Positions 10,678-61,495 of a DNA stretch of 64,000 nt are shown here, one piece after another. Where the stretch lies: contig CAYQYW010000005.1 in the NCBI GenBank assembly GCA_964421995.1, positions 2,203 through 66,202 of the forward strand. Direction: 5' to 3'. The notes beneath the pieces were generated by a model. The model was given only the letters and a program-made list of their open reading frames with translations, was not told where the DNA came from and searched no databases. The DNA is from an uncultured Candidatus Saccharibacteria bacterium (GTDB lineage Bacteria; Patescibacteriota; Minisyncoccia; Phycocordibacterales; CAYQYW01). A program made the translations under genes and the position numbers. How positions within the stretch are numbered: the first letter of the stretch is position 1; every line of letters starts with the position of its first letter.

Positions 10678-11985
10678 ATGACATCTATGAATAATATAAA
10701 TCTTTTTCAGATGGTTATACTCGGCGTCTTCGTTTTTCTTGCAGCGGCGGGTGTTTTTGTTTTTGCTACGTTTAGTAATTTTGGAGATAAATCTTTTAAT
10801 AAAGTTATTATTTGGGGCACTATCCAAAATAATACAATGAATTCATATATCAGTGAGCTCAAGCGAGAGAATTCTGGATTAAAGGATGTTGAATATGTAG
10901 AGAAAGATAAGCGGATGTACGTAGAAGAGATCGTAGAAGCACTAGCTGCAGGAACTGGACCTGATCTTTTTATGCTTCCACATGAGTCTCTACTCAGACA
11001 GCAAGATAAGATTGTTCTTATACCCTATGATGCCTATTCAGAGAGAGAGTTCAAAGATACGTTCATAGAAGAAGGAGAGTTGTTCCTCAGTGATGAGGGG
11101 ATCTATGCACTACCATTTCTTGTAGACCCACTTATTATGTATTGGAATAGAGATTTATTTGCGAAAGAAGGACTTTCTAGTCCTCCAAGGTTCTGGGATG
11201 AATTATTTACACTTAGCGAAACGCTTACAAAAAGAGATCAGGCAGGAAATATAGTGCAGAGCACTGTTGCATTTGGAGAATATAGGAACGTTACTAATGC
11301 AAAGGAAATACTGACTGCGCTACTAATGCAGTCGGGAACGCCAATCACCAGCCGCGATGGGGACAAAGTACTCTCACGATTAACTGAGAAATTTGATTTT
11401 GTCACGCCGCCAACGGTTGCAGCGCTTCGCTTCTATACTGAATTTTCTAACCCTGTTAAGTCGGTATATTCCTGGAATAGAGGATTACAGAGCTCTCGAC
11501 AAGAATTTCTTGCGGGAGACCTAGCGATTTACTTCGGATTTGCAAGTGAACTTCAAGATATACGAGAATTAAATCCAAATCTTAACTTTGATATTGCAGA
11601 ATTTCCACAGTCGAGAGATGCATTAAAAAAATTAACCTACGGAAAAATGACCGGTCTTGCTATTTCAAAGCAGTCTCTTAACAAGCAAGGTGCTCTTCAG
11701 ACTGCGATAGCCCTTACGGGAGCATCCGGACTTTCTCTATTTACGGAGTCCACTAATCTTCCTCCGGTTAGAAGAGATTTACTACGTTCTATTCCAAGTG
11801 ACTCATATAATGGTCTTACCTACGTATCAGCGGTATTTTCAAATGCATGGCTTGATCCAAACGTAAAAGAAACCGATCTTCTCTTCAAGGAGATGGTGGA
11901 GTCAGTGACCTCTGGAAAGGAGAACCTAAGCTCTGCAGTTGGAATTGCGGATAAAGAGATGGAAAATCTATTGCGTAGTAGGTAG
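10678..11985 (+). CDS. Extracellular solute-binding protein (ABC transporter substrate-binding protein, family 1-like), membrane anchored
   Basis: N-terminal TM/signal anchor, then GPDLFMLPHE, IPYDAYSE, PFLVDPLIMYWNRDLF motifs typical of sugar-type SBPs. Start moved to MTSMNN (10678) because the upstream part of the ORF overlaps a hairpin and T-run that follow gyrA. Confidence 0.5.
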   Translation: MTSMNNINLFQMVILGVFVFLAAAGVFVFATFSNFGDKSFNKVIIWGTIQNNTMNSYISELKRENSGLKDVEYVEKDKRMYVEEIVEALAAGTGPDLFMLPHESLLRQQDKIVLIPYDAYSEREFKDTFIEEGELFLSDEGIYALPFLVDPLIMYWNRDLFAKEGLSSPPRFWDELFTLSETLTKRDQAGNIVQSTVAFGEYRNVTNAKEILTALLMQSGTPITSRDGDKVLSRLTEKFDFVTPPTVAALRFYTEFSNPVKSVYSWNRGLQSSRQEFLAGDLAIYFGFASELQDIRELNPNLNFDIAEFPQSRDALKKLTYGKMTGLAISKQSLNKQGALQTAIALTGASGLSLFTESTNLPPVRRDLLRSIPSDSYNGLTYVSAVFSNAWLDPNVKETDLLFKEMVESVTSGKENLSSAVGIADKEMENLLRSR

Positions 11986-11995
11986 AATACTATAT

Positions 11996-12331
11996 ATGAG
12001 AATATTACTTTTTAACGCATTATTATTACTTCCCATGATTGCACTCGCGACACATGGAGGTGGAGCTTTTGAGAATCCACTAGGATATAACACCATTGAA
12101 CAATTTCTTACTGCAGTACTTGGTGCAGTGGTAGTGATAGCCTTTCCGTTTATTGTGTTGTTTCTTGTCTATGCTGGATTTCTATTTGTAAGTGCACAGG
12201 GAAATGAGGAAAAGCTTAGTACCGCCAAAAAAGTATTCATGTGGACGATTGTTGGTGGGTTGCTTGTTCTTGGAGCACAAGTACTTTCATATGCGATACA
12301 GGGTACCATACAAGAAATAAGCTATTTCTAA
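11996..12331 (+). CDS. Small secreted two-helix membrane protein, TrbC/VirB2-like (T4SS-pilin-like) paralog 1
   Basis: Signal peptide (MRILLFNALLLLPMIALATHG), then hydrophobic helix, charged loop (SAQGNEEKLSTAKK), second helix. Shares this architecture with the next four genes. Confidence 0.45.
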   Translation: MRILLFNALLLLPMIALATHGGGAFENPLGYNTIEQFLTAVLGAVVVIAFPFIVLFLVYAGFLFVSAQGNEEKLSTAKKVFMWTIVGGLLVLGAQVLSYAIQGTIQEISYF

Positions 12332-12332
12332 T

Positions 12333-12590
12333 ATGAGAATAAGAACATTAGAAGACCTTATCTTTATTCTTACTGATCTAGTAAGTGCTCTAGTACCTGT
12401 GTTGTTTGCTCTTGCATTCCTCGCCTTCTTCTGGGGGTTAGCCACCTTTATCCTAAACGCAGGAAACGAGGAAGGAAGAACGAAAGGAAAAACAACACTT
12501 GTTTGGGGTTCAATTTCTTTGTTTGTAATCTTTAGTATTTGGGGAATATTAACGTTATTAAAGAATACATTCTTCTTGTCGTATGTATAA
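12333..12590 (+). CDS. TrbC/VirB2-like pilin-like small membrane protein, paralog 2
   Basis: Conserved block LAFLAFFWGLATFILNAGNEEGRTKGKTTLVWGSISLFVIFSIWG shared with paralogs 3-5. Confidence 0.5.
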   Translation: MRIRTLEDLIFILTDLVSALVPVLFALAFLAFFWGLATFILNAGNEEGRTKGKTTLVWGSISLFVIFSIWGILTLLKNTFFLSYV

Positions 12591-12861
12591 TTTATATGGA
12601 GTCATTAATCAAGTATTTTATCTAATTAAGAATGCAACATATATCGTTGCTAGCCTTGCACTTCTTTATTTCTTTTGGGGACTTGCAGAATTAATACTAA
12701 AGTCATCTGACGATGAGAAAAGAAAAGAAAGTATACAGAAACTAATATGGGGACTGGTAGCACTGTTCGTGCTACTCAGTATTGCAGGGATTATAAATTT
12801 ACTTCAATTTTCTTTTGGATTAGATGTACATTCTTCATGGCACTTGCTGGAGAGATTGTGA
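12583..12861 (+). CDS. TrbC/VirB2-like pilin-like small membrane protein, paralog 3
   Basis: LALLYFFWGLAELILKSSDDEKRKESIQKLIWGLVALFVLLSIAG. Same two-helix and charged-loop architecture. Confidence 0.5.
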   Translation: MYNLYGVINQVFYLIKNATYIVASLALLYFFWGLAELILKSSDDEKRKESIQKLIWGLVALFVLLSIAGIINLLQFSFGLDVHSSWHLLERL

Positions 12862-12944
12862 TATACTATCATTATCCACAAAGTGTTATTTGCATATAGC
12901 TTCTAGCTCTTTTATTATTAGTACATACATTTAATAATTTTATA

Positions 12945-13289
12945 ATGAACACAATGAAAAAACTAAGTTTTGTCGGCATCCTATCGTTAACCCCATTTCT
13001 TGCATTTGCTCAAACCGCAGGAGATGTATTAACTACGATCGGTGAGTTAATTGGGACTGCTACACCGATTGTCGTTGCACTTGCACTTCTTTATTTCTTT
13101 TGGGGACTTGCGACATTTATTCTTTCGGCCGGAGATGAAGATAATAGAAAAAAAGGAAGAGAAGTTATGATATGGGGCATTATTGCGCTATTCATTATTG
13201 TTTCAGTGTGGGGGCTTATCGGACTTGTACAGCAAACACTTGGTCTTGATACTGATTCAACAATTACTGTTCCCTCAGTAGAACTATAG
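12945..13289 (+). CDS. TrbC/VirB2-like pilin-like small membrane protein with cleavable signal peptide, paralog 4
   Basis: Signal peptide ending LAFA-QT. Then LALLYFFWGLATFILSAGDEDNRKKGREVMIWGIIALFIIVSVWG. Confidence 0.5.
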   Translation: MNTMKKLSFVGILSLTPFLAFAQTAGDVLTTIGELIGTATPIVVALALLYFFWGLATFILSAGDEDNRKKGREVMIWGIIALFIIVSVWGLIGLVQQTLGLDTDSTITVPSVEL

Positions 13290-13292
13290 TAT

Positions 13293-13568
13293 ATGAATCA
13301 AGTGGGTCAGTTAATGCACAGGATTAATGATGTAATTATTAATCCACTTATTGGTTTATTGTTTACCGTAGCGTTTGTGATCTTTCTGTGGGGGGCAGTG
13401 AGTTTCATTTTTAATGCTTCAGATGCTGAGGCTCAAAAAAAAGGAAAAAAAAACATGGTATGGGGAATCCTTGGAATGTTTATCATGGTGTCCGTCATTG
13501 CAATATTAAGTATTGTACTCCGAACCTTTGGTGTTGATACGTTGAATACTGGTAGAGGATTTTTCTAG
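13293..13568 (+). CDS. TrbC/VirB2-like pilin-like small membrane protein, paralog 5
   Basis: VAFVIFLWGAVSFIFNASDAEAQKKGKKNMVWGILGMFIMVSV. Same family block. Confidence 0.5.
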   Translation: MNQVGQLMHRINDVIINPLIGLLFTVAFVIFLWGAVSFIFNASDAEAQKKGKKNMVWGILGMFIMVSVIAILSIVLRTFGVDTLNTGRGFF

Positions 13569-13609
13569 AACAAAACCCGCAAGAGCGGGCTTACTTTTTA
13601 TCCACCATA

Positions 13610-14324: not shown

Positions 14325-15794
14325 TTATTTTATCGCAATAATAAAGGTCTCGAGGATATCTCCCTCTGCAACATCAAACGGCGAGGTGACTTCTGATCCA
14401 AACTCACCTTCCTCAACTTTATTTGTTTGAGCTTTTTGCTGTTGCAACCCCTCTATTGTACCATTTGCAATGGCCTCCTCTTTTCTCACTATCGTGAACG
14501 TATCACCAACCGAAATTGATCCTGTTTCAATTCTTCCCCCAATTACTTGCTTGTTTTTTGTCTTATTAAATATCTTTAATACTTTCATTTTGCCAGTCAC
14601 CTCTTTCACCTCCATCCTTGGGGTACGTTTCTTGATTGCCTCTTCTAACCATTCAGTGAGCTTGTAGATAATATCAAACCGAGCTACCTCAATTTCCGTT
14701 CTTCTAGCCAATTCTTCAGCTGGTGCATCGATGGATACATTAAATCCTGCAACGATTGCGTGATCAGACCCTCCTGCAGTTTTAATATCATTTTCGGTAA
14801 TTGTACCGACGCCGCTGTGGATTATTTTACTATGCACTCGATCACTTTTCATTTTATTGATTTCATGGAGTACTGCGTCTAGTGTCCCAAGTGCATCTGC
14901 CTTCACGATAATCGGGATGGTATGTTGGTCGCCAACAGTTTTGTTTACCACTTGCTTTTCCTTCTTGAATGTTGCTGTTAGTCGTTCAGCTTCTTTTTTA
15001 CTTGTTACGGTAGTGAATGCAGACCCCACATCAGGAATTGTATTGAACCCAATGAGGGTTACTGGACTTGAGAAGGTTGCTTCTTTAATGCTGTCTCCAA
15101 GAAAATTCTGCATGATTCGTGTAGGGGAGTAACTATTTCCTGATACCACAAACGATCCAGATGAAAGCGTTCCATCTTTAATAATTAATGTTGCTGAAAT
15201 TCCTTTCTTTGGGTCACGGTGTGACTCAATAATAATACCTTCTGCATACTTCTCTTTGTCTCCTTTAAGCTCCTCAACTTCGGAAACCAGAAGCATCATG
15301 TTCAACAGATCAGGAATTCCTTCTCCTGTTTTTGAAGAGATCGCAACATAGGGAACGTCACCCCCGAGCCCCTCAAGATATATTTCGTGCTCAAGAAGAC
15401 TGTTTTTTACTTTCTCAACATTTGCACGTTCTTTGTCTATTTTGGTGAGTGCAACAATGTAGGGGATTCCAGCGTCCGTAATTGATTGAAGGGCTTCTAT
15501 TGTCTGCGTCTTTGGTCCTTCTTCAGCTGATATAATGAGGATAGCAATATCTGCCACCTTACTCCCCCGAGCACGCATTTTTTGGAATGCCTCGTGTCCA
15601 GGTGTATCAAGGAAGGTTATTAACTTTCCCTTGTGCTTTACTTCGTACGCTGAAAGGTGCTGGGTGATTCCTCCCGCTTCACTTTCTACAACTTTGGTGC
15701 TTCTAATGTAATCGAGTAGTGCAGACTTACCATGGTCGATATGTCCCATTATCGCAATTACGGGCGGTCGTTCTTTTTCTTTGATATCTTTCAT
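14325..15794 (-). CDS. infB: Translation initiation factor IF-2 (short form lacking the N-terminal extension)
   Basis: G domain motifs GHIDHGKS, DTPGHEAF, LTKIDK. C-terminal beta-barrel domains. Confidence 0.9.
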   Translation of the reverse strand: MKDIKEKERPPVIAIMGHIDHGKSALLDYIRSTKVVESEAGGITQHLSAYEVKHKGKLITFLDTPGHEAFQKMRARGSKVADIAILIISAEEGPKTQTIEALQSITDAGIPYIVALTKIDKERANVEKVKNSLLEHEIYLEGLGGDVPYVAISSKTGEGIPDLLNMMLLVSEVEELKGDKEKYAEGIIIESHRDPKKGISATLIIKDGTLSSGSFVVSGNSYSPTRIMQNFLGDSIKEATFSSPVTLIGFNTIPDVGSAFTTVTSKKEAERLTATFKKEKQVVNKTVGDQHTIPIIVKADALGTLDAVLHEINKMKSDRVHSKIIHSGVGTITENDIKTAGGSDHAIVAGFNVSIDAPAEELARRTEIEVARFDIIYKLTEWLEEAIKKRTPRMEVKEVTGKMKVLKIFNKTKNKQVIGGRIETGSISVGDTFTIVRKEEAIANGTIEGLQQQKAQTNKVEEGEFGSEVTSPFDVAEGDILETFIIAIK

Positions 15795-23100: not shown

Positions 23101-23472
23101 ATGTTTTCCGTATACAATAAACAAATGAGAACTGCACTACTTATCATTCTTTTTGTACCTGTTGTTGCTTCAGCGCAAGTTATGCAGTGCGACAGTATAC
23201 AGCTAATAGATAACATTATTAAATTTCTTGTAGGGTTAGCTGTTGTGATTGCAACACTTTTCTTTGCTTTTGTTGCTATTAAATATATTACGTCTGGCAC
23301 GAAGCCAGATAAAGTTAGTGAAGCTCATAAAATATTCTTTGATATACTATTTGCTTTAGTAATTGTTCTTATACTATGGTTTACTGCTGATGTGATTCTT
23401 CGGGTGATTCCTATAGAAAATATAGAACGGAGCGGGATAACCCCGTGGTCAGAAGTGATTTGTATAGATTGA
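23101..23472 (+). CDS. TrbC/VirB2-like pilin-like small membrane protein, diverged sixth paralog
   Basis: Signal peptide (VVASA-QV). Helix LVGLAVVIATLFFAFVAI, charged loop SGTKPDKVSEAHK, helix FFDILFALVIVLILWF. Same architecture as the 12-13.5 kb array. Confidence 0.4.
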   Translation: MFSVYNKQMRTALLIILFVPVVASAQVMQCDSIQLIDNIIKFLVGLAVVIATLFFAFVAIKYITSGTKPDKVSEAHKIFFDILFALVIVLILWFTADVILRVIPIENIERSGITPWSEVICID

Positions 23473-25021: not shown

Positions 25022-25888
25022 TTAAACAAACCTCTCAACCAAAGCATCAATCTCACCAGTCTGATCAACGTAAAACCAGTTAATTAATGGATCTCTCTTG
25101 AACCACGTCTTCTGTCTTTTCGAGAATTGAACGATCTTTGTTTCCAATTCTTCTATCATTTCTTCTTTAGTTATCTTTCCTTGTAGGAATCTAGAAACAT
25201 AGCGGTACTCAAGTCCTAATTGTTCCAGTCTTTCTAGTGATAGGTGGAGACCTTCAACTTCCTCGATCATTCCGTCGTCTATTCTTTTTAGTAGGCGATC
25301 GTGGATTTTTGCTCGTAGGTCATCTGTTTTAATTCCAATTTGAAGTACGTTGTACTTTTTATTTATTGTAAGACTAGGAACCTTACCAAGCGTCTCAACG
25401 ATTTCAAGCGCCCGTATTAATCGTGGCTTGTTATCTCTATCTACAGTCTCTGCTCTATCAGGGTCTTTTTCTTCCAATTCTTCTAACAGTTCATTGATTG
25501 ATTTTTTTTCAAGTTTTTTTCGTAATTTTTTATTTGGCGGAACTTCAGGAATAGACATGTTGTGTATGAGTGCATCTACATAGAAACCAGTACCTCCTGC
25601 GATGATGGGTATATTTCCTCTTTTAGTAATTTCTTCTATTTTTTGCTCTGCAAGTTCCTTGAAGTTGGCTACCGTAAATACATTTTTGGGGTCCTCCACA
25701 TCCAGGAGGTGATGCGGAATACCTCCCATTTCCTTTTTGGTGATTTTTCCGCTTCCAATATCAAGTCCTCGATAGACTTGCCGGGAGTCTGCTGAAATCA
25801 CCTCTCCGTTGAATTTTTTTGCAATATGCACTGCTAGATCACTTTTGCCAGAAGAAGTAGGTCCAATAATTGTAATTATTTTACGCAT
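25022..25888 (-). CDS. miaA: tRNA dimethylallyltransferase
   Basis: 288 aa. N-terminal P-loop IIGPTSSGKSDLA, ADSRQVYRGLDIGSGK. Confidence 0.9.
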   Translation of the reverse strand: MRKIITIIGPTSSGKSDLAVHIAKKFNGEVISADSRQVYRGLDIGSGKITKKEMGGIPHHLLDVEDPKNVFTVANFKELAEQKIEEITKRGNIPIIAGGTGFYVDALIHNMSIPEVPPNKKLRKKLEKKSINELLEELEEKDPDRAETVDRDNKPRLIRALEIVETLGKVPSLTINKKYNVLQIGIKTDDLRAKIHDRLLKRIDDGMIEEVEGLHLSLERLEQLGLEYRYVSRFLQGKITKEEMIEELETKIVQFSKRQKTWFKRDPLINWFYVDQTGEIDALVERFV

Positions 25889-25920
25889 AGTGATACTATA
25901 TACAGGATTAGTAAATAAAC
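25856..25920. repeat. 65-bp perfect direct repeat, copy 1 (miaA first 11 codons plus 32 bp upstream)
   Basis: AGTAGGTCCAATAATTGTAATTATTTTACGCATAGTGATACTATATACAGGATTAGTAAATAAAC, identical to 26728-26792. Confidence 0.9.
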
Positions 25921-25940
25921 AATATTTTACTTCCTCCAGA

Positions 25941-26636
25941 ATGAAGATTTATGATATGGATTTACAAGAATTTAAAACTCAATTTATAAAAAATGAACTG
26001 GAGATTACCAATAAATATGGAAAAATATTTTCTTTTATTGATTTTTCAAATGTAAATAATTGGTTTGAAAATGATACACAAGATTGGAATAATAAGCTTA
26101 TAGAAAAAAATGAAAAAATTGGAATTGATATTGCTAAATTAAAAAGATTTTCAGATATTTTTAGTCATAGAGTTAGGACCTACTATGGAGAAGATCCAAA
26201 AAATCCTAAATCTCTTGGTTTTACTCATGTTACAAGAAAGATTTTTAATAGAAGAAACGTTGTCACTAAAGATTTACAAAAAATTAAGCATTATATAGAG
26301 ATTGACAATAAAAAGGAGGAAAAATTTATTACTACAGATAGTGATGGCAATAATTACATAGAAATTCGTAAGTGTAATTTTGACGTTGAGATTTCAGTTG
26401 ACGCAATTAAAATGCTCAATCACTATGATACTTTTTGTATTTTTTCTGGAGATGCAGACTTTGTATACTTGAATAATTTTTTAAAGAAAAAAGGTAAAAA
26501 AGTGATTATTATAAAAGGAGGTTATATAATGACAAAATTAAGAAAATCTGCAAATTTAGTAATTAATGCTCAAAATATTAAAAAACATATAGCAAAAATA
26601 GAAAAAAGACCTGACAAGTCAGGTCTTTTCGGATAG
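25941..26636 (+). CDS. NYN-domain (LabA-like, PIN-like nuclease fold) protein
   Basis: FIDFSNVNNW near the N-terminus and FCIFSGDADFVYLNNFLKKKGKKVIII near the C-terminus are NYN/LabA hallmarks. Extremely AT-rich. Start set at MKIYDM (25941), so the gene no longer overlaps miaA. Confidence 0.6.
   Translation: MKIYDMDLQEFKTQFIKNELEITNKYGKIFSFIDFSNVNNWFENDTQDWNNKLIEKNEKIGIDIAKLKRFSDIFSHRVRTYYGEDPKNPKSLGFTHVTRKIFNRRNVVTKDLQKIKHYIEIDNKKEEKFITTDSDGNNYIEIRKCNFDVEISVDAIKMLNHYDTFCIFSGDADFVYLNNFLKKKGKKVIIIKGGYIMTKLRKSANLVINAQNIKKHIAKIEKRPDKSGLFG
26608..26629 (+). terminator. Rho-independent terminator overlapping the end of the NYN gene
   Basis: GACCTGAC-AA-GTCAGGTC hairpin followed by TTTT. Confidence 0.5.
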
Positions 26637-43184: not shown

Positions 43185-43685
43185 ATGCTGTATTTTATGA
43201 AGTCCAATTATGCATTTATTGATGCACAAAATCTTTATCTCGGTTCGAAGCAAGCTAACATTAATCTCAGTTATCGGAAGTTTCGTGTTTACTTAAAGGA
43301 AAAATATAATGTAGAGCGTGCATATATTTTTATTGGATACTTGCCAGAAAATCGAGAGCTGTATGATTATCTGCAAGACAGAGATTATCTCTTAAAATTT
43401 AAGCCAGTACTTCCAGCTGGAAACGGTCAAAAACAAAAAGGTGATGTTGATGCTGACATGGCATTTAATACAATGCGCTATTATCAGGAGTATGGTAAAG
43501 CAATTTTGGTAACGAGTGACGGAGACTTTGATACGTTGGCGAGTTTTCTACGAACAAAAGACAAATTGGGTGGTGTGATCAGTCCTAATAGAGATAAGTG
43601 TTCTTCTCTTCTGCAAAAAGCAGCAAAAGGTAAAATGTTTTATCTTGAGGATGTTGGAAAGAAAATAATGAAAAAGCACCGCTAG
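43185..43685 (+). CDS. NYN-domain (LabA-like) protein, second copy
   Basis: AFIDAQNLY near the N-terminus. KGDVDADMAF and LVTSDGDFDTLASFL are NYN acidic-residue motifs. Confidence 0.6.
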   Translation: MLYFMKSNYAFIDAQNLYLGSKQANINLSYRKFRVYLKEKYNVERAYIFIGYLPENRELYDYLQDRDYLLKFKPVLPAGNGQKQKGDVDADMAFNTMRYYQEYGKAILVTSDGDFDTLASFLRTKDKLGGVISPNRDKCSSLLQKAAKGKMFYLEDVGKKIMKKHR

Positions 43686-43840: not shown

Positions 43841-44977
43841 ATGATCAATATGATAAAACAGAAATTTCTTGATTATCATCGTTCGCATGGATTTAAAATT
43901 TATGACTCATTTCCACTGGTGATTGATGACCCTACTGTTCTTTTTACTAATGCGACCATAACACCTTTTAAGTCTATGTTTACAGGAGAAGTAAAAATGG
44001 AAAACTATGCTCTCTCACAAAAATGTTTACGTTTGGGTGGTACGGCAGGAAATCTTGAGACGTCTCGATCTGATATAAATTATACATCTTTGTTTGATAT
44101 GCTTGGCAGTGGTTTTTTTAATGTGAGCATGAATGAAGCAGTACATTATTTTGTAGAGCTACTCTCAGAAATAGGTTTTTCACAGGATCGTCTCATATTT
44201 TCAACCCTATCGGGCGTCGGTTTTGATGAAGCACTTAAATGTGCAGGCGTTGCTTCTCATCAAATATTTTTATTTGATCCCTCTGATAAGACTTTTCTTC
44301 ATGAATGGAGTTTTGGAGAAGGAGATTTACACGGACACGGTATAGTAGTTCGAGTTATTCCTGAGGAAGAGGTAACTCTTTCTAAAGACAACATAGTCGA
44401 TAAGTTTTCAGAGTATATTCAAATTGGAAGAATAGTTCATATTAATGGTATATCACATGAAAATAAAACTGTTGAAGAATTTCCATATATGGCTTTTGAT
44501 GTGGGACTTGGTTTAAGTAGAGTTGAATGTGCCCTTTTAGGAAATTCTGAATCATCAATGCGCCCATGGAGAGAAATTTCATATAATCTTCAAGGTGTGA
44601 TTCCTGGATTATCTAAAGGTGATGCTCATTATATTGCAAATTTATATTATGTAGCTAAAAGTCTTATAAGCGAGAAACTAGTACCTGGGAAAAAGAAACA
44701 TTCCTATGTTCTGCGGAAAATTATACGATTATTTATTGAAGAACTTTGGGTTAAGTCAAAAAAACTTGTAGATATTGTTGAACTTATTAGTCAACCACAG
44801 AGGTTATCAGATAATGAACTATTTTTTGAAATTATTTCACAAGAAGAAAAGGCACTTCGTAAGATACTTTCTAAAGCATTGAAAAAAAGACAGGAATACT
44901 CTACTATGAGCCCTGAAGAGTTATGGTCTACTTTTGGCATTAAAGGTAATCTCCTTAATCTTTTGAAACAAGATTAA
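43841..44977 (+). CDS. Mini-AlaRS paralog: alanyl-tRNA synthetase catalytic plus tRNA-recognition domains only (no editing or C-Ala domains)
   Basis: Collinear with E. coli AlaRS residues about 1-440. [36 protein letters not shown] matches [51 protein letters not shown] matches [28 protein letters not shown] matches [24 protein letters not shown] matches RGYVLRRIIR. The conserved FFEMLGNFSFGDYF block is degenerate ([11 protein letters not shown]). Confidence 0.6.
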   Translation: [378 protein letters not shown]

Positions 44978-46443
44978 ATATCGAGCGTAACCAATGGATT
45001 TTCATTTTGATATAGAAGAGCATTTGATTGATAAATTCCACTCATTATTTTTACTGGCATGGTCTGTGAATCTATATTAGATTTCAGATCTTCTTTTTTA
45101 ATATTTCCAAGCATAAAATTAAGATATTCTAAGATTACCCGATCTTTTGCTTTTTCAATGGTTAATTGGCCGTCAATGTTTTTTTCGATATCTTTTCCTG
45201 TAATCTTTTTAAAAGAACTTCCAGACCCAAACATTTTATTATTTCGGAAAATATAGATATCAAAGTGATTGTTGCCACCGATATCAAATTCGTCTGTGTT
45301 ATCAATATCATGCATATCTTCTGACTGATAATTGTGAACATGAATAGACTGGAAAGGTCCTTGTTGAATTATGAACTGTTGATGTTTTACTCGACCATTT
45401 CCTTTATATAAATCTTTGTTTGGAATTGCCCAAGCACGCTTCGAAAAGCTATTGTGTAATAAGTTAATAGACACGTTACAGATATTTTCACCATTTTTTA
45501 AGAATCGTAAAATATTAAATGAGTCAATTTCTCCATATTCTTTAGTTTCCTCTACATATTCTTCTCGAGTTAGATTAGATTCTTGGTATTCTGACTTAAA
45601 ATAGTTACGATAATCTCGTTCAGTTATATTCACCCTAAAGCCACTTGGAAATAACGCAGAAGAAAAAATTTGCATACTATTCGGTTGTTTTTCTTGGACT
45701 ATTCCAGCTTCATATAATTGCCAAACCATATCAAAAATATGATATCCACTGTGCGAGCATTTACCATATCCATCCTGATAGGAGTGTGATTTTTGAAAAA
45801 GTATTTCTTTTGGAAAGACCCACGTTCCATCAGCATGCATTGCTTGAATTGAAGTAACGGGTATGTTAAATTTTTCCTTTGCTTCTATAATTAGTTTTTT
45901 TACTTTTTCAAAACCATAATCGTATCTTCGTTGTATATTTATTGAAAAAATTGTTGATTTTTTATCCTGCACTTTCTTGTATGACTCAAGAAGATCATAA
46001 TAATCCTCCAATACTCCGACAGCTTGAGAGAGTTTTGTATTCTGAAATTTTCTTACAGAAATAGGTTTATCCATAAGAATGTGTAAATTTCGCTTAAGAG
46101 CCCATTCTGCGTATACTTTGTGAGATAAGGGGTCTGTTGAGATAATCACTCCAGTAATATTGAACTTATCTACAAATGCATCAAGTTCACTAATAACATT
46201 CTTCTGAAGACTTAACCCTAGTTCAATGGAATTAGAATCCAAATAATCAGTGTCCAAATAAATCATTTCAAGATCATAATTGTTTTCATGTAAATATTTC
46301 TCTATAACGTCTTTTTGTGAAGTTAGATCTACACCACCAACTAAGGTAATTGGCATAGATTTTGAATATCTTATTAGTGTAGGAATGTATATTCTTCGAG
46401 CATGAAATCCCGCTCCTATGAGCATAATGTTGATTGAAGCCAT
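44974..46443 (-). CDS. Gfo/Idh/MocA-family NAD(P)-dependent oxidoreductase
   Basis: N-terminal Rossmann IMLIGAGFHARRIYIP. MDKPIS resembles the family EKP motif. About 30% GC. Confidence 0.55.
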   Translation of the reverse strand: MASINIMLIGAGFHARRIYIPTLIRYSKSMPITLVGGVDLTSQKDVIEKYLHENNYDLEMIYLDTDYLDSNSIELGLSLQKNVISELDAFVDKFNITGVIISTDPLSHKVYAEWALKRNLHILMDKPISVRKFQNTKLSQAVGVLEDYYDLLESYKKVQDKKSTIFSINIQRRYDYGFEKVKKLIIEAKEKFNIPVTSIQAMHADGTWVFPKEILFQKSHSYQDGYGKCSHSGYHIFDMVWQLYEAGIVQEKQPNSMQIFSSALFPSGFRVNITERDYRNYFKSEYQESNLTREEYVEETKEYGEIDSFNILRFLKNGENICNVSINLLHNSFSKRAWAIPNKDLYKGNGRVKHQQFIIQQGPFQSIHVHNYQSEDMHDIDNTDEFDIGGNNHFDIYIFRNNKMFGSGSSFKKITGKDIEKNIDGQLTIEKAKDRVILEYLNFMLGNIKKEDLKSNIDSQTMPVKIMSGIYQSNALLYQNENPLVTLDI

Positions 46444-46513
46444 TTGATTTACTTAAATTTGATAATAAAATCTATCATAGCATTTTTTTACATTTATTGT
46501 ATAATTGTGATTA

Positions 46514-47322
46514 TGTTAGATACTACTTGGAAAGTCAAAAAAATAGAGTCTAAAAATGATTTTGATCCAGGTATACTACTTCCTCAACTTGCGAACAATG
46601 ACATTCCAGCAATACAAATAGCCAATTTTTATTCACCGGATGTGCTAGATACAATTGTGAAGAATATATTTTCACAGGGGATTCTATGGTATCAAAATTT
46701 TGAATACAAACAGGGTAGAATTGGTGTTTGTGCGACTGAGTATTATTCGAAACTAAATGGAAAAGCAGCTTATTTTGCGCTTGAACCAGAACATTCTCGT
46801 ATTAGAGAAAACATTTTTTCTACTACTCTAGATCCAGTTAACAAACTGATCGAGTTATTTTCTATTAGTTACAAAACAAACATTGCTCGTGAGCCTACTA
46901 TGGGGAATTTAAAATATTTTTCTGGTATTATTCGTGCAATGCAACAAAAAAGTACTGCACATTTTGACTATGCCACTCATCAATTACCAGGGTGGTGGGT
47001 TTCAAACATGGAAGCACAGTTCGGTATTGTTATTTATTTACAAATGCCTGAATTAGGAGGAGAGTTAACTATATATAATCGACCGTGGATACCTGAGGAT
47101 GATAAATATAATCAAGACGTAGAAGAAAAGGGTCCAAAAGGTTTTGATGAAGGACTTTTAAAAAATGTTCCTTCAACAACAATTACTCCTCATGTAGGTG
47201 ATGTAATTATTTTTAGCACAAGAAACTTTCATCAAGTTGATGGTATTAATTCTGATACTATTCGTTTGACTTGTAATTCATTTGTAAGTCTTAAAGACAA
47301 CAAACTTTATTTGTGGAGTTAA
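46514..47322 (+). CDS. 2OG-Fe(II) oxygenase-superfamily-like protein (PhyH-like)
   Basis: Putative facial triad AHFDYA (HxD) ... HVGDVIIFSTRNFHQV, with RLT 11 residues after the distal His (RxS/T 2OG-binding-like). Start moved to MLDTTW (46514). Confidence 0.4.
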
Positions 47323-47334
47323 TAGAATATTTTC

Positions 47335-48171
47335 TTACCACAGGTCTGACAACGTGTAGTCATGGAATTGATTCATAACTGTTTTTGTGATTAATCCAAC
47401 TTTACCATCTCCAACAGGATTATTGTCTATTTTAGTGACGGGAACCACCTCTTTAGCACTTACCGACAAGAACACTTCTGATGCATTCTTAAGATCATCT
47501 ACTGAAAAGTCTTCAACTACAATTGGAATATCAAGTGTTAGGGTTTCAAGTAATACTCCTCGTGTTATTCCATATAAAATGTTATTTTGCGGAGTAAGAA
47601 GCCTGTTGTTTATAACAGCAAAAATATTACTACAAGCACCCTCTCGCACTATATTATCTGAATGGTAAATTAGTTCAGCAATACTTAATGATTCAAAAAG
47701 ATGTATGTTCCGTACTAATTCAATATAGTTATTAGTTTTTGCGTTTGCTTTGTACCGTTCAAATTCAATCAGGTGTACACTTACTCCATCTTCATACATT
47801 TCTTTTGCAAAAACAAAAAACGAATCAACAATAATCATTATGGTCGGTGTTTTTGGTGGAACTAAAGTGTTTGAGGGTCCGCCTGAAATAACAATTCGGA
47901 GAACTTTTTCATCAGCAGTTTTATTTTTAGCAAGCGTATCGAAAACCCACTTAATGATTTGTTTTTTCTCCCATGGAATTGAAAGACTTATACTAGCTGC
48001 CGATTGATAGAGTCGATCAATATGTTTTTTTAGTATAAACGGTTTATGGTGTGGATATGTTCTTATCAATTCAAAAACTGCATATCCTCGAGAATACCCA
48101 AGATCTCGTGGAGAGATAAGAAGTTCTTCCTCAGAAACAAATGATCCATTTAAAAAGTGAATATTAGTCAT
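47335..48171 (-). CDS. Class IV PLP-dependent aminotransferase (D-amino-acid / branched-chain aminotransferase or ADC-lyase family)
   Basis: GYAVFE, TNNYIEL and EGACSNIFAV blocks typical of fold-type IV enzymes. PLP-Lys region present. Confidence 0.65.
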   Translation of the reverse strand: MTNIHFLNGSFVSEEELLISPRDLGYSRGYAVFELIRTYPHHKPFILKKHIDRLYQSAASISLSIPWEKKQIIKWVFDTLAKNKTADEKVLRIVISGGPSNTLVPPKTPTIMIIVDSFFVFAKEMYEDGVSVHLIEFERYKANAKTNNYIELVRNIHLFESLSIAELIYHSDNIVREGACSNIFAVINNRLLTPQNNILYGITRGVLLETLTLDIPIVVEDFSVDDLKNASEVFLSVSAKEVVPVTKIDNNPVGDGKVGLITKTVMNQFHDYTLSDLW

Positions 48172-48283
48172 TGTGTTTTATTATACTGCATTAGTATTAC
48201 ATATGTAAAAATCAGTGCAACAAAGTAATAAAAAGCTTATTTGACATTTTTATAATATTTCTGATATTCTATTATAACTAATT

Positions 48284-50155
48284 ATGGAATACAGTGAGGC
48301 TAGAAAGCGATATCTTAAATTTTTTCAGAAACGAAAACATGCGATTGTTCCATCTGCATCACTTGTACCAATAAATGACCCAACCACTTTATTTACTGGG
48401 TCTGGAATGCAGCCAATGGTACCGTTCCTCTTAGGTGAAGCACATCCTAAAGGATCTAGGATTGTTGATTTACAAAAATGCTTTCGTGCAGAGGATATTG
48501 AAGAAATAGGAGATAATCGTCACACAACATTTTTTGAAATGATGGGGAACTGGTCTTTTGGTGATTATTTTAGAAAAGAACAACTTTCTTGGTATTTTGA
48601 ATTTCTCACAGACGAGATGGATATAGATCCAAAGAAACTTTATGTAACGGTATTTGCAGGAGATAAAGATTTTGATTTAAAAAGAGATGACGAAGCTATT
48701 AGTATTTGGAAGAAACTTTTTGCTGGAAAAGGTATAGAGGCAAAAGATATATACGTAGGAAGCGAAGAGCATGGTGCTAATTTAGATATAGGCGATGCTC
48801 GTATTTTTCAATATACCGCAAAGAAAAACTGGTGGTCTCGAGCCGGGATACCAAAAAATATGCCAGTCGGAGAAATGGGAGGTCCAAATTCTGAAGTATT
48901 TTTTGATTTTGGTACTCCACACGACACCGCTTACGGAAAATATTGTCATCCAAATTGTGACTGCGGAAGGTTTGTAGAGCTTGGAAACTCTGTTTTCATA
49001 ACTCACCTAAAAACAGATGACGGAAATTTTGTATTATTACCAAAAAAGAACGTAGATTTTGGTGGGGGAATAGAACGTCTTGTTGCTATTGCGAATAAGA
49101 ATCCTGATATATTTTCAATCAATATCTTCCAGGGGGTGATTGCAAAGCTTGAAGAACTTTCTGGAAAATCTTACGATCAAGATAAACATGCATTCCGGAT
49201 TATCGTTGATCATATTCGGGGAGCTCTCTTTATGATTGTTGATGGAGTTGTTCCTTCAAACACTGAACAAGGCTATTTCTTACGAAGGCTTCTACGACGA
49301 ATGATAGTACATGCTGATCGACTTACTATTCCTAAATATGGTCTTATAGAACTTCCTGAAATTATTGCTGTTGAGTATAAAGATGTCTACCCAGAATTAG
49401 TTGAGAAGATTTCATATGTACAGAAAATTTTTAGAGAAGAGGAAGAACGTTTCCGTGTCACTCTCACAAAAGGTCTTAAAGAATTTAAAAAGCTTTCTCA
49501 TAACACAAGTTTTATCTCTGGACACGATGCATTTATTCTTTTTTCTACATACGGATTTCCGTTAGAAATTACTATAGAATTTGCTGAAGAATGTGGAATT
49601 ACTGTTGACGAAGAGGCATTCCATGAAGAAATGAAAAAGCATCAAGAGGAATCACGAAAAGGGGTAGGGCAGAAATTTAAAGGAGGTCTTGCAGACAACA
49701 ATGAAAAGATAACTATGCTCCATACCACAACACACCTTATGCTAGCAGGACTTAGAAAATACTTGGGCAAAGATGTACACCAGGCAGGATCGAACATAAC
49801 TGTTGAACGTACTCGTTTTGATTTCACTCATTCTGAAAAAGTTAGTAGAGAAATTCTAAATAAGGTAGAAGAATATGTTAATAGGGCAATTCAAAATAAA
49901 TGTAATGTCATCACTGAACAAATACCAAAAGAAAAAGCAAAGGAACAGGGCGTCGAAGGAAGTTTTTGGGAGAAATATCCTGATACGGTGAATGTGTACA
50001 GCGTTGTTTGTTCAGACGGAACTGTCTATTCAAAAGAATTATGTGGCGGACCACATGTTAAAAACACAAAAGAAATCAAGGGCACCTTTAAAATCAAAAA
50101 AGAAGAGGCTAGTTCTGCAGGGGTAAGAAGAATAAAAGCTATTTTAGAAGAGTGA
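48284..50155 (+). CDS. alaS: Alanyl-tRNA synthetase (catalytic, tRNA-recognition and editing domains; no C-Ala domain)
   Basis: 623 aa. TTLFTGSGMQPMVPF, RHTTFFEMMGNWSFGDYF, GGGIERL. Editing-site HTTTHLM (HxxxH) and CGGPHV (CxxxH). Confidence 0.9.
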   Translation: MEYSEARKRYLKFFQKRKHAIVPSASLVPINDPTTLFTGSGMQPMVPFLLGEAHPKGSRIVDLQKCFRAEDIEEIGDNRHTTFFEMMGNWSFGDYFRKEQLSWYFEFLTDEMDIDPKKLYVTVFAGDKDFDLKRDDEAISIWKKLFAGKGIEAKDIYVGSEEHGANLDIGDARIFQYTAKKNWWSRAGIPKNMPVGEMGGPNSEVFFDFGTPHDTAYGKYCHPNCDCGRFVELGNSVFITHLKTDDGNFVLLPKKNVDFGGGIERLVAIANKNPDIFSINIFQGVIAKLEELSGKSYDQDKHAFRIIVDHIRGALFMIVDGVVPSNTEQGYFLRRLLRRMIVHADRLTIPKYGLIELPEIIAVEYKDVYPELVEKISYVQKIFREEEERFRVTLTKGLKEFKKLSHNTSFISGHDAFILFSTYGFPLEITIEFAEECGITVDEEAFHEEMKKHQEESRKGVGQKFKGGLADNNEKITMLHTTTHLMLAGLRKYLGKDVHQAGSNITVERTRFDFTHSEKVSREILNKVEEYVNRAIQNKCNVITEQIPKEKAKEQGVEGSFWEKYPDTVNVYSVVCSDGTVYSKELCGGPHVKNTKEIKGTFKIKKEEASSAGVRRIKAILEE

Positions 50156-50253
50156 CTTTAATCTCTTCTAAAATAGCTTATAACCTTGATGATTAAGGCA
50201 ATAAAAAGTATTAAGATAAATTCACAATTTTATTGTAGATCATTGAAATAATT

Positions 50254-50610
50254 ATGAAAACATTAAGAACAGTAAAAGGAGAGGCCATCTATTCGAAGCA
50301 TAAAAAGAATCGAAAAGACGATCCTTGTCCTCTGTGTAATGAAGAACTATTACACCATTTTACGTATTGGAAAGTAATTACCAATAGTTTTCCATATGAT
50401 CGTATTGCTCGTGTTCATGATATGGTTGTTCCAATACGACATGTTGTGGAAAATAAACTCACTAAAGATGAATTAGAAGAATATGAAGAATTAAAAAATG
50501 GCTTTTTAAGCGAAAAGTATACATATTTCATTGAGGTTTCAGCAAAAGAAAAAACAATATTAAATCATTTTCATATTCACCTTATAAATCTAAAAACAAG
50601 TTTTTGCTAA
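50254..50610 (+). CDS. HIT-family (histidine triad) nucleotide hydrolase/transferase
   Basis: C-terminal NHFHIHLI histidine-triad motif. N-terminal CPLC. Confidence 0.55.
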   Translation: MKTLRTVKGEAIYSKHKKNRKDDPCPLCNEELLHHFTYWKVITNSFPYDRIARVHDMVVPIRHVVENKLTKDELEEYEELKNGFLSEKYTYFIEVSAKEKTILNHFHIHLINLKTSFC

Positions 50611-50616
50611 CTAATT

Positions 50617-50766
50617 TATATATCATCGTACTCTTTCTCACATTGAGGGCAACACATTCCAGGTAAAATGCACAGCCAACTACAACATTCTTTTCCAGGT
50701 TCAGGTTTGTAGTCCGGATTGTCTCTAAACTCTTCCTCAAGGGGGAATTTTTCTTGAATACTCATT
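50617..50766 (-). CDS. Unannotated 49-aa cysteine-rich mini-protein
   Basis: Hand-translated: MSIQEKFPLEEEFRDNPDYKPEPGKECCSWLCILPGMCCPQCEKEYDDI. Six Cys arranged CC-x3-C-x6-CC-x2-C. ATG to TAA in frame. Fills the gap between the HIT and NUDIX genes. Below the ORF-track length cutoff. Confidence 0.3.
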
Positions 50767-50956
50767 TTAGAATATTACAGAATTATTTTACTAAAATCAA
50801 ACAATGTCTCCGCCCTATGGGGTTACTGGTCCCATATGGATAAGACCATTGTCCATCTAAATATGGACGCTTTTTTGACAGTTCAAAAAACTCACAAAAA
50901 AAGTTACTTAGAATGGTAGGTCTCTGAATTAAGAAACTGGTATAGTATATGAGCAT

Positions 50957-51388
50957 ATGAAAAAGGATCAATCATTGGGAGTGGTAGTAGTTTGCAAGGG
51001 AGCTGTACCTAGATATTTATTGGTACATCACCAAACGGGACATTGGGCTTTCCCTAAAGGTCACCAAAAAGAAGGAGAAACTTCAATTGAGACGGTACAA
51101 AGAGAGCTGTATGAAGAAACGGGACTCAAGAATATTACAATTCTTGAAGATACTAGATTTACTGAAAAATATATTATGAATAATGATACTGAAAAAACAG
51201 TTCATTTCTTTATTGGTTTTTCAAATGAAGTTTGTGGAGGTCCAATTGATAAGTTTAAATATGAAATTTCTGAAGCAAAATGGGTAACGTATGATGAAGC
51301 AAAAGAATTACTTACCTATGTTGAAGCGAGAAATGTACTAGACGAAGTACTTGAGTATTTGAAAAAAAATGAAAGCACTAATCTTTGA
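50957..51388 (+). CDS. NUDIX hydrolase
   Basis: Nudix box GHWAFPKGHQKEGETSIETVQRELYEETGL (Gx5Ex7REUxEExGU). Confidence 0.75.
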   Translation: MKKDQSLGVVVVCKGAVPRYLLVHHQTGHWAFPKGHQKEGETSIETVQRELYEETGLKNITILEDTRFTEKYIMNNDTEKTVHFFIGFSNEVCGGPIDKFKYEISEAKWVTYDEAKELLTYVEARNVLDEVLEYLKKNESTNL

Positions 51389-51971
51389 TTTTGATGGAGT
51401 GATTGTAACAACGTCAGACTTTTCCTATGACATATTACATGAAATAAAACCTAGCTTGTCGAAAGAGAGGTTTTTACGGATGTTTGATGGAAATGTTAAT
51501 CATGGATTACAAAGAGAAAATATAACTAGTAAACTTCTTATCAATTACTTTTTTGGAAAATATTCAACTAAAATAATGAAAGTTGATCCTGTTGCTAAAA
51601 TAGATAGGGTGATCCGGAAAACATCAGAATCGTGTACTTTATTTATTGTGTCAGCTTCTTTGACATTCATCATTAACGAGTATTTAGAGAAAAATAACCT
51701 ACGTCGTTATTTTGAGGACATTCTTGGAAATGATATTGCGTATAGTAAGACAGAAAAAATAAATAGTATTTTGGAAAAATACACCCCAGAAGATTGTTTA
51801 TTTATTACTGATACGCTTGGTGATATTCTTGAAGGTAAGAAAAGTAAAGTGAAAACAATAGGTGTTACTTGGGGATATCATGATAGGGGTTCTATAGAAA
51901 GGGGAAATCCAGATTCTATTGTTACTAATCCCAAGGAACTACTTGAAAAGTTACAAAGTAGCTTTCTTTAG
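51369..51971 (+). CDS. HAD-superfamily hydrolase (subfamily IA-like)
   Basis: Motif I IFDFDGVIV. Downstream motifs consistent with phosphatase and beta-PGM-like HADs. Confidence 0.7.
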   Translation: MKALIFDFDGVIVTTSDFSYDILHEIKPSLSKERFLRMFDGNVNHGLQRENITSKLLINYFFGKYSTKIMKVDPVAKIDRVIRKTSESCTLFIVSASLTFIINEYLEKNNLRRYFEDILGNDIAYSKTEKINSILEKYTPEDCLFITDTLGDILEGKKSKVKTIGVTWGYHDRGSIERGNPDSIVTNPKELLEKLQSSFL

Positions 51972-51995
51972 ACTTTAAGAGTATTATTAGAGTAG

Positions 51996-52409
51996 ATGAC
52001 AGAGTTAGCTACATTTGGTGCAGGATGTTTCTGGGGGCCTCAATTAACCTTTAGCAAGCTTCCTGGTGTTGTTAAGACGGTTGTAGGATTTGCTGGGGGA
52101 GATACTGACAATCCAACCTATGAGGAAGTCAGTCAGGGAACTACGGGGCACAGCGAAGTAGTGAGGGTTGAATATGATCCAGAGAAAATTTCCTATAAAG
52201 CGCTTCTTGAGGCGTTTTTTTCTATGGATGCACCATACGAAGAGGCGATCACACAGTATAAATCTCTTATTTTTTTTCATACAGACGAGCAGGAAAAGAT
52301 TGCACGAGAACTGTTACCAGAGAATATTAAAACAGAAATTCTTCCGGCTGGAATGTTCTATGAAGCAGAAGAATATCACCAGGGTTATTTCAAAAAACAA
52401 GGAAGATGA
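51996..52409 (+). CDS. msrA: Peptide methionine sulfoxide reductase MsrA
   Basis: Active-site GAGCFWG at the N-terminus. About 137 aa. Confidence 0.9.
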   Translation: MTELATFGAGCFWGPQLTFSKLPGVVKTVVGFAGGDTDNPTYEEVSQGTTGHSEVVRVEYDPEKISYKALLEAFFSMDAPYEEAITQYKSLIFFHTDEQEKIARELLPENIKTEILPAGMFYEAEEYHQGYFKKQGR

Positions 52410-60579: not shown

Positions 60580-61494
60580 ATGGAAGAAGATATAAATATC
60601 TCGTCGGAACCTGCACAAAAGGAAAGCATGTTCCCGCCATTTATTCTTGTTGCATTAGTTATTGTCGGAATTATTGTAGTGATTTTTATTCTTCTGAGAT
60701 TTGATAATGGTCAATCTTCATCGTTTAATATTCCAACTGATACTAATCACGTCATTCTATATGACAACAATACACTCTATGCGTTTGAGCCTGTCTCTGG
60801 TGAGTTAAAAGAACTTGGAACTTTTTTACTTGAGGGAGGAGAAATAAATGAAGCGGCATTATCCTCTGATTTAGTAAGTATTTTGCTTTCATCAAGCGGT
60901 AGCATTTTACAGTTCACTTCGTTTACAAGTGGTGAAGTTATTGGAACAAGTGCAGGCAAAATAAAAGATATAGCAATTTCAAATAAGTTAGTCTTGTTTT
61001 CTTCAGGAGAATTAAATGATAGAAATGAACGAAGTGTGTACAAGATACAAGACAAAGAAATAGAAATATTTGATCTTGGAAGTACTCCATTTTTCCTTAA
61101 TGATGGAGCGTATGCTGCACTTGGTACCTCTGATGGGTTTAGATTATTTGATTTTGAATTTGGGGACTACCTTGATACCGAAACACCAACCATTCCGGTT
61201 GCCAGTACGATACAGCCATCTAGGTCTGGGAATAAAATTGCACTAGTGAGCACTAATAACTCAGTTCATATATACAGTGTGCTTTCTCTGCGACCACTTA
61301 GCTTACTCGAGGACTTTTTTTTAGTGATCCCAGGTGTGTATGATGCTGCGGTGTCAGATGATGGAAGGATTGCATTATTAAAACGTTTAAATGAAAGAAC
61401 ATATATATCAGTTTGGACTTCAAACAATAAAGAATTATTAAGCAAAGAATTGCCCGTGAGCAAGAATGCAAAAATGTTATTATGGAGTAAATAA
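60580..61494 (+). CDS. Membrane-anchored beta-propeller-like (TolB/WD40-like) protein
   Basis: N-terminal TM helix, then repeated beta-strand-rich about 40-aa segments (LVLFSS..., AALGTSDGFRLFDF..., IALVSTNNSVHIYSV..., IALLKRLNERTYISVW...). Confidence 0.35.
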   Translation: MEEDINISSEPAQKESMFPPFILVALVIVGIIVVIFILLRFDNGQSSSFNIPTDTNHVILYDNNTLYAFEPVSGELKELGTFLLEGGEINEAALSSDLVSILLSSSGSILQFTSFTSGEVIGTSAGKIKDIAISNKLVLFSSGELNDRNERSVYKIQDKEIEIFDLGSTPFFLNDGAYAALGTSDGFRLFDFEFGDYLDTETPTIPVASTIQPSRSGNKIALVSTNNSVHIYSVLSLRPLSLLEDFFLVIPGVYDAAVSDDGRIALLKRLNERTYISVWTSNNKELLSKELPVSKNAKMLLWSK

Positions 61495-61495
61495 T

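Follow-up and report, generated by a model that had tools for sequence, protein, structure and literature searches.

Patescibacteria are host-dependent, and in Southlakia epibionticum, the only species tested, the pilin series inside its type IV secretion system (T4SS) cluster is essential (Wang et al. 2023; PMC10633639). On a wider scale, Quinonero-Coronel et al. 2025 screened 3,035 Patescibacteria genomes using the profiles PF18895 and PF04956, and found VirB2-like pilins in 1,948 assemblies that contain virB4, of which 1,135 had them close to virB4, as well as 441 VirB2-like arrays of 2-11 genes with a mean within-array identity of 25% and a maximum of 54% (PMC12102498). The same study places virB4 near dnaA/dnaN in Paceibacteria, states that systems of the mating pair formation (MPF) type MPF-FATA lack VirB2 homologues, and proposes that the arrays serve adaptation to different host strains; it also cites the VirB2 paralogue arrays of Bartonella and Anaplasma, which were read as antigenic or host-range variation (PMC12102498). 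In a 2025 FEMS review, a pilus of the T4SS of monoderm Patescibacteria is described as a 'possibility' and an open question (PMC12857230). Here we analysed a 64 kb stretch of DNA (contig CAYQYW010000005.1), referred to below as the window, which carries a solute-binding-protein (SBP) gene followed by five adjacent pilin-like genes (P1-P5), and a sixth copy (P6) at a distance. The host of this locus is a Patescibacterium of the class Paceibacteria (Parcubacteria), and the operon is chromosomal. We consider it likely that the operon, together with the distant sixth gene, provides VirB2/TrbC-like subunits that co-assemble by means of a VirB4-driven T4SS encoded elsewhere in the genome.

The six pilin-like genes are as follows.

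11996-12331, + strand: P1, 111 aa from its ATG
12333-12590, + strand: P2, 85 aa, core-class pilin paralogue
12583-12861, + strand: P3, 92 aa, core-class paralogue, overlapping P2 by 8 nt
12945-13289, + strand: P4, 114 aa, core-class paralogue with a signal-peptide-like N-terminus
13293-13568, + strand: P5, 91 aa, terminal-class paralogue
23101-23472, + strand: P6, 123 aa, solitary diverged TrbC-like paralogue upstream of rpmG, 10 kb from the array

P1-P5 are adjacent and on the same strand, and occupy 11996-13568. An earlier note, made from the letters of this DNA, had described a five-gene array with a sixth copy at 23101-23472, and the open reading frame (ORF) listing, PF18895 and a custom profile all agree with it. 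Its size range of 85-130 aa holds at the lower end; P1 reaches 130 aa only if the upstream TTG at 11939 is taken as the start, and we placed the start at the ATG because of orthologue support.

All six proteins scored above the gathering cut-off of PF18895 T4SS_pilin (26.6 bits, whole-protein score), with 37.1 bits for P1, 43.2 for P2, 37.7 for P3, 42.7 for P4, 31.5 for P5 and 28.7 for P6, and the match spans the charged loop and both helices, covering nearly all of the 71-position model. In addition, a custom family profile of 126 members, run against the six-frame ORFs of at least 40 aa of the window, found only P1-P6 (E 3e-51 to 9e-20) and no seventh copy, the next frame having an E value of 0.36. 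As profile scores go, the six-copy result is well past chance, and by these matches the genes are members of the VirB2/TrbC-like T4SS_pilin family typical of the candidate phyla radiation (CPR)/Patescibacteria. Quinonero-Coronel et al. 2025 define a Patescibacteria pilin array as at least two PF18895/PF04956 genes of low mutual identity, in tandem or one gene apart, in a Patescibacterium; the window has five tandem PF18895 genes with 19-48% pairwise identity.

Could these be unrelated proteins with two transmembrane (TM) helices, such as holins, bacteriocin-immunity proteins or other membrane peptides, that match by hydrophobic composition? TM-rich proteins do give spurious profile matches, as with TM1-TM2 of a G protein-coupled receptor (GPCR) in our PDB searches, and fold searches are non-specific, but the curated PF18895 cut-off was passed by each of the six genes independently, over the charged loop as well as the helices. 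The earlier note had itself named holins and immunity proteins as the competing families; PHROGs gave no relevant match that would speak for a holin or phage origin, and no immunity-protein or other rival family was found in Pfam. The family is also large and coherent. An exhaustive profile search returned 12,466 cluster representatives (6,991 at E<=1e-10) with the conserved non-hydrophobic motifs WG, AGDEE, KGK and a P-x-V tail, and a word-indexed search gave 725 homologues of P4, all with PF18895, several of which are named 'pilin' by the PGAP annotation pipeline (Patescibacteria, Paceibacterota and Kaiserbacteria metagenome-assembled genomes, MAGs). Together with the published virB4 linkage of the family (PMC12102498), these points make a chance resemblance among hydrophobic proteins extremely improbable.

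The six copies fall into two groups. The earlier note had described one conserved block in the five genes of the array; the block WG...AG(D/N)EE..R.KGK...WG is indeed common to P2-P5, but P1 (YAGFLFVSAQGNEEKLSTAKKVFMWT) has diverged as far as P6 has. These two make up a TrbC-like subclass separate from P2-P5, and the two groups are joined at the profile level only (hhalign probability 96.6%, E 6.6e-10). Against PF04956 TrbC, with a gathering cut-off of 27.9 bits, P1 scored 24.2 bits (E 3.8e-5) and P6 25.6 bits (E 1.5e-5), both under the cut-off, and P2-P5 gave no match. At the level of the class, 36 of 56 P1-class homologues matched PF04956 at E<=1e-3 (best 4.9e-9), and precomputed PF04956 matches exist for 24 of 68. 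Since the window scores lie under the cut-off while the matches recur across the family, we describe the relation of P1 and P6 to TrbC as homology and not as formal membership; by these profile comparisons, the P1 class bridges the pilin family to TrbC/VirB2. The TrbC/VirB2 and T4SS_pilin identity given in the earlier note thus stands in its T4SS_pilin part for all six genes, and in its TrbC part as near-threshold matches of P1 and P6 only. The best NCBIfam match of P1-P5 was NF045849, the Mbov_0395 family of pilin-like conjugal transfer proteins from Mycoplasma, covering nearly the full 80-position model at 26.2-36.0 bits (E 4e-9 to 5e-6), all below the equivalog cut-off of 40 bits; P6 did not match it. 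A relative of this kind, from a monoderm integrative and conjugative element (ICE), would fit inheritance of the pilin along with the rest of the machine.

All six products are small helical hairpins of the inner membrane. Hydropathy gave two TM-length stretches in every copy from P1 to P6; charge is most concentrated in the loop between the helices in P1 and P3-P6, and in the N-terminal tail in P2. An AlphaFold2 model of P4 from a 62-sequence alignment is a helical hairpin with helices at 16-60 and 65-98, at a mean predicted local distance difference test (pLDDT) score of 78 and above 90 in the core. This model and the hydropathy of all copies conform to a VirB2-type helical hairpin and to the helix/charged loop/helix layout of the earlier note, although the fold is non-specific and fold searches could not tell a P4-type hairpin from others. 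By hydropathy and AxA-site heuristics, P1, P4 and P6 carry a third, N-terminal hydrophobic stretch with an AxA-type site that P2, P3 and P5 lack, which concurs with the signal peptides that the note had assigned. The signal-peptide-like N-terminus is MRILLFNALLLLPMIALA/TH in P1 and …LTPFLAFA/QT in P4, and in P4 this segment is kept in the consensus of the class homologues. The predicted topology runs from about 20-30 external N-terminal residues through TM1, a short Lys/Arg-rich loop of mixed charge and TM2 to an external C-terminal tail; the loop is placed in the cytoplasm, with both termini outside, because of the positive-inside rule. The C-terminal tail of P4 has a conserved T-I-x-V-P-x-V motif.

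A conserved motif that contains at least two cysteines, (L/I)-V-P-C-x(4-12)-C-x-F, lies in the N-terminal tail of the P6 class. Two or more cysteines occur in 17 of 17 members, whereas the other classes average 0.1-1.2. P6-class genes occur also at L019, L029, L044, L066, L077 and other related loci, and the window P6 has a single N-terminal cysteine and one near the C-terminus.

To compare the paralogues between species, we aligned the window array (W) all-against-all with the arrays of three related loci, L002 (the closest relative), L003 and L005. The genes fell into positional orthologue sets (W1/L2_1/L3_1/L5_1; W2/L2_2/L3_2; W4/L2_4/L3_3/L5_3; W5/L2_5/L3_4/L5_4), while W6 paired with L2_6, and W3 with L2_3 of the closest relative only. 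P1 is 75, 57 and 45% identical to its orthologues in L002, L003 and L005, respectively. The L002 orthologue of P2 (9382-9630) is 72% identical, and that of P3 (9632-9910) 54%, with a proportion of non-synonymous differences (pN) of 0.275. The positional orthologue of P6, at L002 18227-18643 between clpB and L33, is 47% identical by local BLAST and 55% in a global codon alignment. Against L002, the ratio of non-synonymous to synonymous substitution rates (dN/dS) was 0.06 for P1, 0.14 for P4, 0.13 for P5 and 0.19 for P6, with dS saturated for P2 and P3; the neighbouring housekeeping genes gave 0.03-0.10. These codon comparisons indicate that the pilin paralogues are under purifying selection.

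The order of the genes is fixed as well. A single scan of GTDB species genomes yielded 80 related loci, and the members of their arrays were assigned to classes by best match. The arrays open with the P1 class, at times with a P6-class or a second P1-class gene ahead of it, continue with one to seven core-class genes, and end in the P5 class in most loci; the P6 class, solitary in the window, stands at the head of the main array in other species. Only three array members had class '3' as best match. The comparison of array copy number that the earlier note had suggested gave typically 4-7 copies, with a range of 2-9. A copy of the locus from a second metagenome is 99.96% identical to the window, without gaps.

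These data bear on the earlier note's proposal that the array serves dosage, phase or antigenic variation of a surface filament, with the paralogues as interchangeable variants. Some features do point that way: the Bartonella and Anaplasma arrays are so interpreted and host-strain adaptation has been suggested for Patescibacteria (PMC12102498), the core-class copies vary from 1 to 7 between species, and P3 (the fastest-evolving copy) and P6 are 54-55% identical to their L002 orthologues, against 67-78% for the others. There are also poly-A tracts, A8-GG-A9 in P5 (13435-13453, encoding a KKKGKK loop) and A7 in the P4 loop (13148-13154), and tracts of such length could slip. However, both tracts are absent from the orthologues and have the same length in the second sample. 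The paralogues are only 19-48% identical to one another, no DNA-level direct repeats that could drive recombination occur within the array, and neither invertible elements nor silent cassettes were found. Given the one-to-one orthologues, the low dN/dS (0.06-0.19), the lack of repeats and the stable tracts, there is no support for phase variation, for antigenic variation of the cassette type or for simple dosage; we regard interchangeable variants as very unlikely, and a fixed set of specialised subunits as the better reading. Positional orthology, fixed order, low dN/dS, absence of repeats and unchanged tracts together show an old, stable set of specialised paralogues, in which only the core-class copy number shifts, and that on long time scales. 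Because they are old, ordered and individually conserved, the pilin paralogues are probably distinct parts of one assembly and not antigenic variants.

The array does not stand alone, and its probable transcription unit is framed by the following features.

10678-11985, + strand: membrane-anchored extracellular SBP with the SBP_bac_8/SBP_bac_1 fold
13576-13599, + strand: terminator-like GC hairpin and T-run, CCCGCAAGAGCGGG then CTTACTTTTT, directly after P5
13612-13995, - strand: four tRNA genes, convergent with the array

The SBP matches PF13416 (2e-20) and PF01547 (9e-17), and its similarity to the sugar-binding NCBIfam SBPs is weak and far below threshold. It has an N-terminal membrane anchor, no lipobox and no detectable pilin-like signal. 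It appears to be an orphan, since no ABC permease or ATPase partner for it is encoded in the 64 kb window. The intergenic gaps along SBP-P1-P2-P3-P4-P5 are 10, 1, -8, 83 and 3 nt, so that SBP and P1-P5 are packed in an operon-like manner and are probably co-transcribed, and the terminator-like hairpin would close the transcription unit. Promoter-like hexamers at 11960-11988 and 12889-12918 were no commoner than in shuffled sequence (6 found vs 9.3 expected), and for this reason we claim no promoters.

The same arrangement recurs across the class. The homologues and syntenic loci all come from Paceibacteria/Parcubacteria MAGs, and the 80 loci cover Kaiser-, Campbell-, Zambryski-, Vogel- and Wolfebacteria and other Paceibacteria. 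Near and distant relatives share the block hisS-lepB-pth-S1-MBL-gyrA-(methyltransferase)-SBP-pilin array-(variable)-rbfA-infB-DUF4446-nifS-protease-clpB, and gyrA, SBP, the array and the rbfA/infB block occur in about 70 Paceibacteria species. The closest GTDB match is 55-63% identical, and therefore the window species is absent from GTDB. The array is present in nearly all of the 80 loci, the exceptions being short or truncated contigs; an SBP orthologue lies upstream of it in 71 and gyrA in 67. In 63 of those 71 loci the SBP gene is within 90 nt of the first pilin frame, which makes this the tightest junction of the neighbourhood, while insertions are tolerated between gyrA and the SBP gene (median 846 nt) and between the array and rbfA.

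The variable inserts downstream of the array were considered as a possible place for VirB4 in relatives; what they encode instead are SPFH/Band 7 proteins, a PrkA kinase and also type IV pseudopilins. In many relatives (L010, L019, L049, L050 and others, at about 10.7-13 kb of the locus) the array-rbfA gap is filled with genes in convergent orientation, whose products are SPFH/Band 7 proteins with an N-terminal anchor and TM proteins of no assigned family, and in L028 it contains type IV pseudopilin-like genes. In the window, the gap holds the four tRNA genes only.

The top matches of the exhaustive profile search are natural fusions (P0191-P0220; loci L089 1114-2121 and L090 635-1642), proteins of 200-368 aa in which linkers rich in Gly, Ser and Pro connect two or three complete pilin modules, with the (I/V)-P-x-V tail motif after each module. 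They look genuine, because one fusion gene, P0192, is part of a pilin array and turned up in two independent metagenomes. An AlphaFold2 model of a three-module fusion had a pLDDT of 60, too low to read the packing between modules.

Based on these findings, we propose a mechanism by which the subunits may be assembled. P1, P4 and P6 would enter the membrane through Sec with cleavage of their signal peptides, and P2, P3 and P5 would insert directly. The paralogues would be non-redundant subunits that co-assemble instead of substituting for one another, and their physical co-assembly is supported by the two- and three-module fusions found inside arrays. A VirB4-driven, MPF-FATA-like T4SS would extract and polymerise the pool of membrane subunits, as for VirB2 in known systems and for the essential pilin series of S. 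epibionticum. This machine would be encoded elsewhere in the genome, perhaps near dnaA/dnaN as reported for Paceibacteria, and its product could be a pilus or an envelope-spanning conduit that contacts the host cell. The SBP would be co-expressed and may act at the same surface structure. Both pilus formation and the coupling to a distant VirB4 machine are proposed here by analogy with the described systems.

Several results weigh against this mechanism. No protein of the window reaches the cut-off of PF04956 or of NF045849. Profile searches of the PDB with P4-class, P1/P6-class and P1-class alignments returned spurious TM matches only, among them FliL and the beta-2 adrenergic receptor (the GPCR TM1-TM2 match), and hhalign of our profiles against A. 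tumefaciens VirB2 (a query 100% identical to the annotated virB2 on Ti plasmids) was not significant. A T4SS pilus has yet to be observed in a Patescibacterium (PMC12857230). Moreover, linkage to VirB4 was found neither in the window and its extension nor in the related loci. VirB4, VirB6, VirD4, VirB3, TrsD and relaxase are absent from the window, where every ORF of at least 250 aa was scanned, and the 10 kb past its ftsA end on the 89,453-bp source contig (JGI 3300033050 Ga0348266_1000061), with ftsZ, trxB, gdh, tsaD and a gene for a class I aminoacyl-tRNA synthetase (PF00133), contain neither T4SS genes nor pilins, which extends the earlier note's remark that no VirB4, VirD4 or VirB6 gene lies nearby. 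Among the 80 related loci, none has VirB4, VirB3, VirB6, VirD4 or TrsD in the 10 kb on either side of its array. With T4SS genes thus missing from the surroundings, the T4SS link rests on family homology and the literature and not on gene context.

The same absence, taken with the SBP, leads to another explanation, namely that the array and the SBP form a surface or membrane device independent of any T4SS, either a scaffold that displays the SBP for host-derived sugars or a hetero-oligomeric membrane channel. The scaffold has a precedent in the bindosome of Sulfolobus, where sugar-binding proteins reach their place on the surface only with the help of small pilin-like proteins (PMC3047682); however, the bindosome pilins are of type IV with class III signal peptides and belong to a different family. 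The window pilins are homologous to TrbC/VirB2, and in other Patescibacteria classes such pilins lie inside essential virB4 clusters. The SBP abuts the first pilin gene in most loci, the flanking junctions tolerate insertions, and the SBP has no ABC partner in the window, but adjacency may mean only co-expression of envelope proteins, and the SBP itself shows no pilin-like signal. We keep this explanation, unlikely as we judge it, because no T4SS gene was found near the array in 80 species and the tightest junction is the one with the SBP. A more specific form is similarly improbable: the Paceibacteria array would be a separate, deeply conserved operon away from virB4, led by an orphan SBP, and its fixed series of specialised subunits (P1 class, core copies, P5 class) would form a heteropolymeric surface structure that carries or positions the SBP for capture of host nutrients or recognition of host glycans, as a T4SS-pilin counterpart of the archaeal bindosome and not as a conjugation-type pilus. 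Assembly by a distant VirB4-driven T4SS is the reading we prefer. T4SS cargo and pilus formation in Patescibacteria are questions that the comparison of about 80 species helps to constrain.

Apart from the array, the window is a housekeeping stretch of low GC (~0.39). It carries ftsA, hisS, lepB, pth, an S1 protein gene, gyrA, the SBP gene and the array, and the tRNA genes are followed by rbfA, infB, clpB, topA, nrdAB, dprA, several aminoacyl-tRNA synthetase genes and uvrABC. infB (14325-15794, - strand) encodes a 489-aa initiation factor 2 (IF2) without the long N-terminal region, and has the same length in relatives. Two NYN-domain (predicted RNase) genes lie at 25809-26636 and 43185-43685. 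A low-GC island at 43841-52000 (GC 0.32-0.35 vs ~0.39-0.41 around it) carries genes for a GFO/IDH/MocA-like oxidoreductase, a WelO5-like 2OG-Fe(II) oxygenase/halogenase homologue and a class IV aminotransferase, with a 378-aa catalytic-domain fragment of alanyl-tRNA synthetase (AlaRS; 43841-44977) and a 623-aa AlaRS (48284-50155) as flanks. At 60580-63529, two overlapping genes without a Pfam family encode a TM-anchored 304-aa protein and a secreted protein of 687 aa that contains acidic double-disulfide repeats (NF033662, CSDGIDNDGDGDID motifs); both are likely cell-surface proteins.

We finally compared the locus with known systems. The VirB2 arrays of Bartonella and Anaplasma phagocytophilum are likewise tandem sets of divergent VirB2 genes in host-associated bacteria, but they lie with the virB operon, while the window paralogues are anciently fixed, ordered and under purifying selection. 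With the Gram-negative TrbC/VirB2 pilins (A. tumefaciens VirB2, RP4 TrbC) the window proteins share two hydrophobic helices, a short polar loop and about 70-90 mature residues, and three of them have a putative signal peptide; P1 and P6 match the TrbC profile at E ~1e-5, and many P1 homologues pass. In contrast to these pilins, half of the window copies have no signal-peptide-like segment, there is no adjacent virB3 or virB4, and the organism is monoderm, without an outer-membrane core complex. Mbov_0395 (NF045849) is similarly a small two-TM protein of a monoderm conjugation system of the MPF-FATA type, but it is single-copy in a Mycoplasma ICE, whereas the window genes are multi-copy and chromosomal, in a housekeeping neighbourhood.

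The closest systems are the T4SS pilin arrays of Patescibacteria (S. epibionticum ML1 SEML1_0006-0019, the 'Sec secreted array' of Nanosynbacter lyticus TM7x, and the 441 published arrays). These belong to the same PF18895/PF04956 family, are likewise tandem small genes of low mutual identity (19-48% here), and come from monoderm, host-dependent, ultrasmall bacteria with no relaxase context. Unlike them, the window array lies neither in nor near a virB4 cluster but between gyrA and rbfA/infB, and is led by an SBP gene. The published array figure concerns arrays near virB4, and the papers stress Microgenomatia and Saccharimonadia. The accession prefixes of six related contigs are absent from the supplementary tables of Quinonero-Coronel et al., and a literature text search found no paper linking Patescibacteria, VirB2 and a substrate-binding protein. 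The array is therefore a member of an already described kind, and the locus adds no new kind of system; the earlier note, sound in its family identification, had overlooked these published arrays and the conserved SBP leader gene. Three points are missing from those texts, namely the gyrA-SBP-array setting that extends through Paceibacteria at a distance from virB4, the constant order of the classes, and the coupling to the SBP. In Paceibacteria, the arrays are uncoupled from virB4 and tied to an SBP gene, and the ordered paralogues, the SBP link and the natural fusions offer concrete targets for the study of contact between episymbiont and host.

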